Below, piece after piece: positions 4,520 to 5,368 of a stretch of DNA of 6,184 bases; positions within the stretch are counted from its first letter, which is position 1; each line of letters starts with the position of its first letter. The stretch is from a virus. Taxonomy: Duplodnaviria > Heunggongvirae > Uroviricota > Caudoviricetes. The notes beneath the pieces are model-generated. The model ran no database searches. It was not told where the DNA came from and saw only the letters and a program-made list of their open reading frames with translations. A program made the position numbers and the translations under genes. The stretch lies in the IMG/VR virus record IMGVR_UViG_2713896791_000023, one strand, 5' to 3'.

Positions 4520-4717
4520 TCAATACACAAAATCTGTTTTAAATTCATGGTTACATTCTGGGCAGCATGTTTCGTAACCTTTTATTTCTTCACATGCCTG
4601 TTTTGCTCCAGAAAATTCCCAGAAATCAGCATCGCAAAGCAGATCGAAATTGTGGCCGCATTTTGGGCATTCAGTATCAAGTGATAAACTCCAGTAAGCA
4701 GGTGTGTTTTTGTCCAT
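4520..4717 (-). CDS. Small Cys-rich zinc-ribbon-like protein, 65 aa (MDKNTPAYWSL...ECPKCGH...CCPECNHEF...).
   Basis: ATG at 4717 with an AAGGAG RBS 6 nt upstream. It has CxxC ... CCxxC motifs. The ORF-track start at 4750 is upstream of the RBS and overlaps the preceding gene. Confidence 0.6.
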   Translation of the reverse strand: MDKNTPAYWSLSLDTECPKCGHNFDLLCDADFWEFSGAKQACEEIKGYETCCPECNHEFKTDFVY

Positions 4718-4718
4718 A

Positions 4719-5162
4719 TCACTCTCCTTTCCCCTGAAGCATAGCGGCACGGCAGGCGTTCCAGCCTCTCACCTCTGCAATAGCGGCAACAGCATNNNNN
4801 NNNNNNNNNNNNNNNNNNNNNNNNNNNNNNNNNNNNNNNNNNNNNACAGCATCAACCGCGTACATGCTAAGAGGATTAGGCATTGGTTTTTCTTCCGGTA
4901 CTACTGGAACGGGGGGAGCGGCGTAGACCTCAATAATTCCATTATCAATAGGCCATTCTCCATCCTTGAGGTAGTCACTTGTGCCGTCAACTTGCTGTTC
5001 TGCAATGTGGAATGCACCTATTGGTTCAGCTTCCAGCGCTGCCAGAGCAATCCGTGCCAGTTCTTCCGCTTCTTCTGCTGGCAGTACAACGTTGCTACCA
5101 GGTCCGTATGTTTCGCGCCACTGCTTGATTGTCAGCAGTCGCTCTTTGGTAATAGTGGTCAT
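4719..5162 (-). CDS. Hypothetical phage protein 'B', about 147 aa, paralog of 'A'; interrupted by the 50-N gap.
   Basis: ATG at 5162 overlaps the upstream stop (ATGA), with a GAGGA RBS. It shares the N-terminal domain with 'A'. The reading frame is preserved across the N-run if the run is exactly 50 nt. Confidence 0.65.
   Translation of the reverse strand: MTTITKERLLTIKQWRETYGPGSNVVLPAEEAEELARIALAALEAEPIGAFHIAEQQVDGTSDYLKDGEWPIDNGIIEVYAAPPVPVVPEEKPMPNPLSMYAVDAXXXXXXXXXXXXXXXXXXAVAAIAEVRGWNACRAAMLQGKGE
4796..4845. other. Run of 50 N: unresolved or masked sequence.
   Basis: Read directly from the sequence. The 7-mer ACAGCAT sits immediately on both sides of the run (4789-4795 and 4846-4852). 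Confidence 0.99.
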
Positions 5163-5368
5163 TTGTTAATCCTCAAAACTTTATGCCCGGGCGCAAAAGC
5201 ACGCGTTTTGTCTTTGCTTATTCGCCAGCCATCCTTGCGCGCCTCTTTTGCACAGCCAGCCCATGACGTACCTATATACTCACCGAAGTCTGGCGACTTA
5301 TATTTGCCATCTGTACACTGGAGGCAATCACAATAGAGATGCATGGTGTAACTTGCAGCAATAGCCAT
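5159..5368 (-). CDS. Small Cys-rich protein, 69 aa (MAIAASYTMHLYCDCLQCTDGKYKSPDFGEY...).
   Basis: ATG at 5368 is preceded by the same 17-nt AAAGGAGAGTGATATGG context as the zinc-ribbon gene at 4717. It has a CxCxxC cluster plus a further Cys. Its stop overlaps the start of 'B'. Confidence 0.55.
   Translation of the reverse strand: MAIAASYTMHLYCDCLQCTDGKYKSPDFGEYIGTSWAGCAKEARKDGWRISKDKTRAFAPGHKVLRINK

Follow-up and report, generated by a model that had tools for sequence, protein, structure and literature searches.

Two conserved small genes for predicted metal-binding proteins occupy cargo positions between paralogues within the exo-xis segment of a 933W-like prophage

In the left arm of a Shiga-toxin (Stx) phage genome two small Cys-rich genes lie interleaved with two larger genes that are partly paralogous, which raises the question of what the small genes encode and why they are found in this arrangement. 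The DNA analysed here, called the window throughout, comprises 6,184 nucleotides (nt) of IMG/VR virus record IMGVR_UViG_2713896791_000023 and is 100% identical to Escherichia coli O45:H2 FWSEC0003 and three further complete genomes. It belongs to a 933W-like (Traversvirus-type) prophage inserted in wrbA. Positions from 5159 upwards show 99-100% identity with 933W, VT2-Sakai, Stx2-86 and many other Stx phages. Both small genes are located in the variable part of the pL-transcribed accessory region between exo and xis, in agreement with the early-operon location given in a first-pass annotation of the window. On balance we favour, with somewhat better than even confidence, the explanation that these are genuine exo-xis genes for mini-proteins with a metal site, which travel as swappable cargo cassettes and have a binding role.

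The genes and their place in a cargo array

Translation of the minus strand confirmed two open reading frames (ORFs) of 65 and 69 amino acids (aa) where the first-pass annotation had placed them, and the junctions with the larger genes were as tightly packed as it had described. The segment contains the following features:

4520..4717, minus strand: 65-aa gene (WP_000360278.1, phrog_4173) for an acidic, probable four-Cys (C4) zinc-ribbon protein, cargo cassette 2; identified by translation, PHROG match and coding-sequence call
5159..5368, minus strand: 69-aa gene (WP_000951706.1, phrog_926; L0068 of 933W) for a basic, ribbon-like, predicted zinc-binding protein, cargo cassette 1; identified by translation and PHROG match
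4714..4730, minus strand: 17-nt linker AAAGGAGAGTGATATGG with ribosome-binding site, TGA of the 128-aa paralogue, 1 nt and ATG of the 65-aa gene; exact direct repeat D3
5365..5381, minus strand: second copy of the linker, with the stop of the 62-aa gene, 1 nt and ATG of the 69-aa gene
4719..5162, minus strand: MTT..TKE paralogue, truly 128 aa, inflated by a gap; its start overlaps the 69-aa stop (ATGA) and its end, ...QGKGE(stop), lies in the linker
3931..4509, minus strand: MTT..TKE paralogue of 192 aa (WP_001434920.1, phrog_660), which begins 10 nt after the 65-aa stop
5370..5571, minus strand: 62-aa gene (WP_000797281.1, phrog_1380; with CGFC; end ...RTKGE(stop) in the linker), broken by the gap at 5476-5525

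Both small ORFs are annotated as hypothetical proteins by the Prokaryotic Genome Annotation Pipeline (PGAP). They lie far beyond chance expectation. In addition to these calls, each carries the ribosome-binding site AAGGAG and has diverged homologues in the hundreds, in which residue patterns are conserved; they are genuine, independently conserved small genes. Family alignments back the ATG starts of the 65-aa and 69-aa ORFs and support neither the longer GTG starts (76 and 93 aa) nor the start of the 95-aa L0068 annotated in 933W, to which the 69-aa gene corresponds with a corrected start. Among 5426 complete E. coli genomes, the 65-aa gene was present in 85 and the 69-aa gene in 823 (about 15%), with up to six copies; both also occur on plasmid records, and the annotation is always hypothetical. 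The two families are already catalogued in RefSeq and in PHROGs (phrog_4173, E 2.7e-27; phrog_926, E 1.5e-36; both listed with 'unknown function'), are uncharacterised, and are absent from Pfam, NCBIfam and solved structures. Neither ORF is treated in the literature on the exo-xis genes orf60a, orf63, orf61, orf73, ea22, ea8.5, orf55 and 24B gp05, and no paper mentioning L0068 of 933W was found.

Two runs of N in the window (4796-4845 and 5476-5525) are gaps set at 50 N irrespective of the true length, and ORF lengths read across them are therefore wrong. The first gap stands for 0 nt: the heptamer ACAGCAT is duplicated on either side of it and the true sequence is 57 nt shorter, so that the apparent 147-aa paralogue is really 128 aa long. 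Part of this paralogue is marked as a pseudogene fragment by PGAP. The second gap stands for 37 nt, and an apparent 168-aa ORF running through it differs from the current PGAP call and is unreliable; the gene directly upstream of the 69-aa ORF is the 62-aa gene. The earlier view that each small ORF follows a larger gene thus holds for the 65-aa ORF, preceded by the 128-aa paralogue, but not for the 69-aa ORF. In the order of minus-strand transcription, the TGA of the 62-aa gene is followed after 1 nt by the ATG of the 69-aa gene, which passes into the 128-aa paralogue through an ATGA overlap; the TGA of this paralogue is again followed after 1 nt by the ATG of the 65-aa gene, and a 10-nt gap separates the latter from the 192-aa paralogue.

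Besides the linker AAAGGAGAGTGATATGG, the region contains no other exact 17-nt repeat of this kind, and as the stop of the upstream gene lies inside it, this gene ends in ...KGE. In viral contigs chosen by the linker itself, whose counts describe the pattern and do not estimate its frequency, the 17-mer occurred at least 126 times on at least 120 contigs, after at least 20 different upstream gene ends, all of them ...KGE. At least 120 occurrences are followed by a complete ORF, in each case a single cargo gene of 49-171 aa from one of at least 19 unrelated families. Among them (loci L024-L143), an 87-aa family (MATLTKKE..) was found 36 times and a Cys-rich family of 171 aa (MALTHxELCQIA..) 29 times; a 121-aa HNH-like protein is a further example. 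The gene after the cargo has an 'MTT(I/F/L)T(K/R)E...ALAALEAEP' N-terminal domain in 91 of the 108 listed linker occurrences with an identifiable next gene.

The same domain accounts for the paralogy of the two larger genes in the window, which the first-pass annotation had noted and which is limited to the N-terminal ~90 aa (37% identity, E 3e-9) and does not extend beyond. This MTT module (MTT.TKE.L ... ALAALEAEP ... YAAxPxP) is not covered by a Pfam family, and the C-terminal parts attached to it vary greatly (120-468 aa), some of them with DUF551. Both small genes are single-gene cargo cassettes with an identical linker before and an MTT paralogue after them, and it is this cassette architecture behind the interleaving that had not been recognised earlier. 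We read the region as an alternating array of paralogues and single-gene cargo, whose borders probably supply the homology for cassette exchange. We propose that the conserved flanks couple translation and offer Red- or RecET-type recombination short homologies for the swapping of cargo, which would explain why the small genes are interleaved with paralogues. The match of 933W to the window stops at the 69-aa stop codon, which places a mosaic boundary at the end of a gene.

In several chimeric ORFs (P0034, P0038, P0042, P0061, P0063, P0064) one foreign N-terminal module (..EM.GFL.GKC.P.DLKVNE) is found on the C-terminal half of the 69- or the 65-aa protein, which shows recombination inside the small genes too, not only at their borders. 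In addition, an 88-aa protein found on 73 contigs joins residues 1-31 of the 69-aa protein to another Cys-rich tail.

Short conserved sequences at gene borders, common to many related phages and with unrelated genes between them, are part of the modular theory of lambdoid phages, to whose mosaicism Red-type recombinases contribute through their use of short or diverged homology (PMC2327257 and its reference 9); our reading of the array is in line with this. The array differs from this general picture in that specific flanks, the 17-nt linker on one side and the MTT paralogue start on the other, are repeated within one operon around at least 19 types of cargo. Integron arrays likewise hold single promoterless genes of diverse function in equivalent, co-transcribed slots with conserved bounding sequences. 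This is an analogy only: the array lacks attC or attI sites specific for an integrase, its exchange would depend on homologous recombination, and the 'spacers' are protein-coding paralogues. No published description of a paralogue-cargo array was found in a search that was not exhaustive.

The segment could also be read as two diverged copies of one two-gene unit, in which the MTT paralogue translated next would serve the small zinc protein as partner, adaptor, chaperone or antidote. An MTT-domain gene indeed follows in 25 of 32 loci of the 69-aa family, always by ATGA overlap, and in 6 of 18 loci of the 65-aa family; the ATGA-overlap loci include a Klebsiella siphovirus and a Kosakonia prophage, and the zinc-MTT pairing is kept at 35-45% identity in Klebsiella phage VLCpiS13f and the Kosakonia prophage. 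The two large genes are paralogues, and the two small families are perhaps distantly related (hhalign 46%, ligand columns in register). What makes such a unit improbable in our view is the behaviour of the MTT genes elsewhere. The 143 loci examined contain 112 MTT-domain ORFs, 81 of which are preceded by neither zinc family; since MTT genes follow unrelated cargo, of at least 19 families, just as often, the pairing is not specific for the zinc proteins. In addition, the C-terminal parts of the downstream MTT genes vary freely (from 120 to 328 aa in the 69-aa-family loci), and copies of the small genes in 933W, Ackermannviridae, Drexlerviridae, Jedunavirus, Erwinia and Lysobacter have no MTT neighbour at all. 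Toxin-antitoxin and defence models matched neither partner. PADLOC defence models gave no match for the 65-, 69-, 62- or 192-aa proteins and only a negligible PglZ match (14.7 bits) for the 128-aa paralogue. A toxin-antitoxin pair, for which a small upstream gene overlapping a larger downstream one was considered, was rejected because no model matches and the partners vary freely.

Predicted metal sites of the two products

The 65-aa protein (MDKNTPAYW...TDFVY) contains Cys residues at C17xxC20, C28, C42 and C51C52xxC55. A first search for its family returned nothing but close relatives and a few chimeras. Diverged copies came from translated searching of phage genomes: in virulent Klebsiella Jedunavirus and in P22-like Salmonella phages, in Yersinia, Enterobacter and Citrobacter phages, and in temperate Erwinia phages, with the gene placed just upstream of xis and int in the last of these. 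By profile search the family comprises at least 296 clusters, whose members nearly all stand alone and are 63-70 aa long. In an alignment of 103 homologues with 30-98% identity, C17, C20, C52 and C55 are kept in 102-103 sequences, and the set C17, P18, C20, C52, P53 and C55 in 98-103. Near-invariance is also seen at A7, W9, L13, D25, H57, F59, D62 and the Tyr or Trp of the C-terminus. Conservation does not include C28, C42 or C51.

The AlphaFold2 (AF2) model of the protein (predicted local distance difference test, pLDDT, 88) consists of two beta-hairpins that carry the knuckles, and 36 residues superpose at 1.3-1.6 A on its best solved neighbours, the ZitP zinc finger (PDB 2nb9) and LysW (3wwl). 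These are generic zinc beta-ribbons, with which the model has the two-knuckle CxxC...CxxC topology in common. From model and alignment, the product is probably a strongly acidic C4 zinc ribbon with C17, C20, C52 and C55 as predicted ligands. The 103 aligned relatives are uniformly acidic (median isoelectric point (pI) 4.17, median charge about -10), which speaks against DNA binding and for a basic partner.

Several family labels were considered for the 65-aa protein. Pfam contained no model that matched it at the gathering threshold, the best being Rad50_zn_hook with 20.1 bits against a cut-off of 24.3, and among 90 family members only sub-threshold matches were found, spread over 84 families. 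The UniRef label 'CPXCG motif-containing cysteine-rich protein' (Cys_rich_CPXG, PF14255) was rejected with 13.3 bits (E 0.081) against a cut-off of 25.2; this model reached E <0.01 in only 13 of the 90 members. Assignment as a YnfU family zinc-binding protein (NF038384 / PF23499) was rejected as well, as the match (17.9 bits, 36 required) covers the second knuckle only (residues 40-61). Weak matches to the YnfU model were present in 14 and to LysW-type ribbon models in 15 of the 90. Matches of the family profile to C2H2 'CPECGKSF' structures are motif-level only and were set aside.

The 69-aa protein (MAIAASYTMHLYCDCLQC...RINK) has Cys residues at C13xC15xxC18 and C39. Its family contains at least 417 representatives at 50% clustering in an exhaustive profile search, mostly of 60-80 aa. 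It is not confined to Stx phages: virulent Ackermannviridae, Drexlerviridae and Klebsiella siphoviruses carry homologues too, and those of Kosakonia and Pantoea prophages are situated in the nin region and not in exo-xis. Close relatives have invariant C13, C15, C18 and H62 and a variable C39. In an alignment of 130 family sequences, position 13 is Cys in 128, position 18 is Cys in 103 and His in 5, and A43 (126/130), G47 (128/130), W48 (127/130) and P60 (118/130) are strongly conserved. Position 62 is His in 82 and Cys in 44 sequences (126/130 together), and C39 is Cys in only 75/130. Within the CxCxxC plus further Cys that had been described for this protein, the motif C13, C15, C18 holds, but the fourth predicted ligand is His62 and not C39.

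Across the same 130 sequences Cys15 and Cys59 are almost mutually exclusive: 65 have only C15, 58 only C59, 4 both and 3 neither (Fisher p 4e-28, treating related sequences as independent). This ligand swap is the strongest argument for a real four-ligand metal site, as judged from the sequences. The likely ligands of the family site are C13 and C18, a His or Cys at position 62, and C15 or else C59; in the window copy they are C13, C15, C18 and H62. The AF2 model (pLDDT 78.7) has a beta-beta-alpha-beta-beta order with a helix as insert. An hhalign comparison of the two families gave 46% probability, with positions 15, 18, 59 and 62 in register with the four Cys of the 65-aa ribbon, so that the 69-aa protein may be a much-modified zinc ribbon. 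The designation zinc-ribbon-like in the first-pass annotation fits the 65-aa protein well and the 69-aa protein only loosely. The 69-aa family is mostly basic (median pI 8.4), and its helix ends in an invariant A-R/K-x-x-G-W.

Nothing above threshold was found in Pfam and NCBIfam for the 69-aa protein or its family. The profile also matched plant ZF-HD homeodomains in their helix 1, but only marginally (E 0.016), and this match was not adopted. Single-sequence searches of solved structures with both small proteins revealed nothing significant. The first-pass annotation had made its proposal depend on conserved Cys positions and on the lack of a known housekeeping family; the ligand sets are conserved in both families, and the Pfam and NCBIfam profile searches give no housekeeping assignment.

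Domain fusions of both families were uninformative. Of the candidates, P0097 was a false positive (a metalloproteinase with fibronectin type II-like repeats) and P0065 a tandem artefact. In P0104 (132 aa) a 69-aa-family domain is joined to a second zinc-ribbon domain (...CPKC...EAIFSWNKM), which we take to be Lar-like; this is adjacency, not membership. The NCBIfam model for Lar (Lar/RalR restriction alleviation) gave no match among the NCBIfam hits at E up to 0.01.

Possible functions

Small zinc proteins among phage accessory genes are a known kind; what is notable here is the ligand swap of the 69-aa family and the bracket of linker and paralogue. With four conserved protein ligands, the predicted metal site would be structural rather than catalytic, and a catalytic zinc site was rejected. 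The four-ligand site, the exchangeability of the genes and their occurrence in virulent phages and nin regions together point to non-enzymatic accessory proteins with a binding function. Since relatives are found in virulent phages and nin regions, a lysogeny-specific role is unlikely. With low confidence we suggest that each protein binds one-to-one to a macromolecule early in infection. For the acidic 65-aa ribbon the partner might be a basic protein of the host or of a defence system, probably one that binds nucleic acid. The basic 69-aa protein might use its A-R/K-x-x-G-W helix end to contact nucleic acid or an acidic partner. In both cases the result would be take-over of the host or counter-defence and not control of lysogeny.

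A functional precedent is Enki of a Vibrio phage, a predicted zinc ribbon of 52 aa that inhibits the host defences AbiH and Retron (bioRxiv 10.1101/2024.06.14.598830). Compared by description only, it resembles the proteins studied here as a very small predicted zinc-ribbon phage protein, but it comes from another phage group and another host. The acidity of the 65-aa family, the exchangeability of the genes and this precedent fit a role directed at the host or at competitors without proving it. The proteins may inhibit host proteins, as the first-pass annotation had suggested; a search for support of this role found no partner, phenotype or informative structural neighbour.

If binding of host or defence proteins is correct, the two genes would add to the small-protein toolkit that Shiga-toxin phages use in the first minutes after induction, and they could affect induction, the outcome of superinfection and toxin release. 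The ligand swap offers a clean set of mutants for testing, and linker plus paralogue bracket a simple sequence rule for harvesting more prophage accessory genes. With the bracket there is also a concrete system for testing how phage mosaics arise through homologous recombination at borders of short conserved sequence. A bolder version, to which we give rather little credence, is that the array is an integrase-free device for cassette exchange of host-directed genes by homologous recombination, that the zinc proteins are new counter-defence or take-over inhibitors, and that the 69-aa family has a zinc fold unseen in solved structures. If none of these readings is true, the locus contains two ordinary hypothetical phage genes.

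Regulation of the lysis-lysogeny decision or of host transcription has to be weighed against the favoured binding role, for example by binding of RNA polymerase. Lambda Orf73 and TraR of the F plasmid are proteins of ~70 aa with a predicted four-Cys zinc site, which act through binding to RNA polymerase and not by catalysis (PMC9239242; PMC8614690). Like them, the proteins described here are small and predicted to bind zinc; the 69-aa protein is basic, with the marginal ZF-HD helix 1 match of its family profile mentioned above. Both genes share the early pL operon and accessory region with orf60a, orf63, orf61, orf73 and ea22, genes that have an influence on lysogenisation and induction (PMC8614690, PMC3824215). 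The likeness to Orf73 and TraR ends with small size, a predicted four-ligand zinc site and the pL accessory region: there is no sequence or profile similarity, TraR/DksA models matched neither protein nor family, and both predicted structures lack a long N-terminal helix, including the DxxDxA N-terminal helix of those proteins, with folds modelled instead as two beta-hairpins (65 aa) or beta-beta-alpha-beta-beta (69 aa). Lambda Ea8.5, as cited in PMC8614690, has a hybrid homeodomain/zinc-finger fold (Kwan et al. 2013). It is likewise a small zinc-binding protein without assigned function from the variable ea22-xis segment, but its solved homologues show no similarity in sequence or fold to either small protein. 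Moreover, the prophage already contains a separate TraR gene, homologues are found in strictly virulent phages and nin regions, and the 65-aa family is too acidic for DNA binding. Both genes are absent from the genome of phage 24B (HM208303), the Stx model for exo-xis work. A regulatory role consequently appears to us about as doubtful as the two-gene unit.

Accessory factors of phage DNA replication or recombination, such as small zinc adaptors for helicases or primosome components, are less likely still. A 65-aa homologue lies directly upstream of a DEAD/DEAH helicase gene in Klebsiella Jedunavirus (L009 2501-4382) and a 69-aa homologue directly upstream of a DNA helicase gene in Drexlerviridae ESCO41 (L011 2498-4364), and prophage copies are found near exo/bet/gam or dnaB-like genes. 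Each helicase adjacency is limited to one phage lineage, however, and may be coincidence. BLAST of all flanking ORFs revealed no conserved functional neighbour except the MTT domain, and most contexts are runs of unrelated small hypothetical genes.

That the two are functionless, decaying or chance ORFs left by mosaic recombination, as might be thought in a region rich in PGAP pseudogenes and the chimeric ORFs named above and with inconsistently annotated 62-, 109- and 155-aa ORFs nearby, is effectively refuted. Full-length homologues number in the hundreds and reach down to about 30% identity; their ligand and core residues are invariant, their length is fixed at 60-80 aa, and both termini are conserved. 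In addition, the ribosome-binding sites are strong, and both genes are present in unrelated phage families.

Remaining features of the prophage arm

The rest of the window contains the bacterial gene with the insertion and the adjoining genes of the left arm on one side, and a gene that marks the conserved exo-xis block on the other:

1-579, minus strand: 5' part of E. coli wrbA
576-1910, minus strand: integrase
1939-2238, minus strand: excisionase
5723..6184, minus strand: 3' part of an ead/Ea22-like gene, which ends in ...GIRIKGGE(stop) and marks the conserved exo-xis block upstream

Next to the excisionase, and like it on the minus strand, come four genes (DUF4222, a 126-aa gene, DUF1627 and DUF551), then the segment with both small genes and the 3' part of the ead/Ea22-like gene. 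Beyond the window, FWSEC0003 has TraR/orf73, orf61/63/60a-type genes, exo, bet, gam, kil and cIII. Neither an Rfam family nor an excess of promoter- or terminator-like sites turned up in the region.

The annotation of the stretch between the Ea22-like gene and the 69-aa gene (window 5370-5722; L003 5914-6254) is unsettled. PGAP places the 62-aa phrog_1380 gene here. RefSeq Stx2-86 has a 155-aa ORF in the frame of the 62-aa gene that overlaps Ea22 (phrog_12350), and in 933W the stretch is without annotation. In another frame a 51-aa ORF (phrog_13831) with a good ribosome-binding site starts at the Ea22 stop (TAATG).

At the other end, the wrbA frame overlaps the integrase stop by 4 nt. Judged by the native N-terminus of wrbA, its first ~13 codons appear to be supplied by the phage end and not by native wrbA.

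The DUF1627 gene (2885-3274, minus strand) contains a 9-nt tandem repeat GCTGCACTG in about 6 copies (window 3028-3090), which encodes a (QPV)n / PVQ repeat. Its protein is a homologue of gp05 (vb_24B_3c) of phage 24B, which Donaldson in 2021 reportedly modelled as a winged helix-turn-helix followed by a PVQ repeat and a coiled coil. The DUF551 gene is an N-terminally truncated pseudogene according to PGAP, yet a 158-aa ORF is open in the window. It carries an exact 15-nt tandem duplication (TCAATACCATTACCA x2; window 3516-3545, L003 4117-4146), which encodes GNGIDGNGID.

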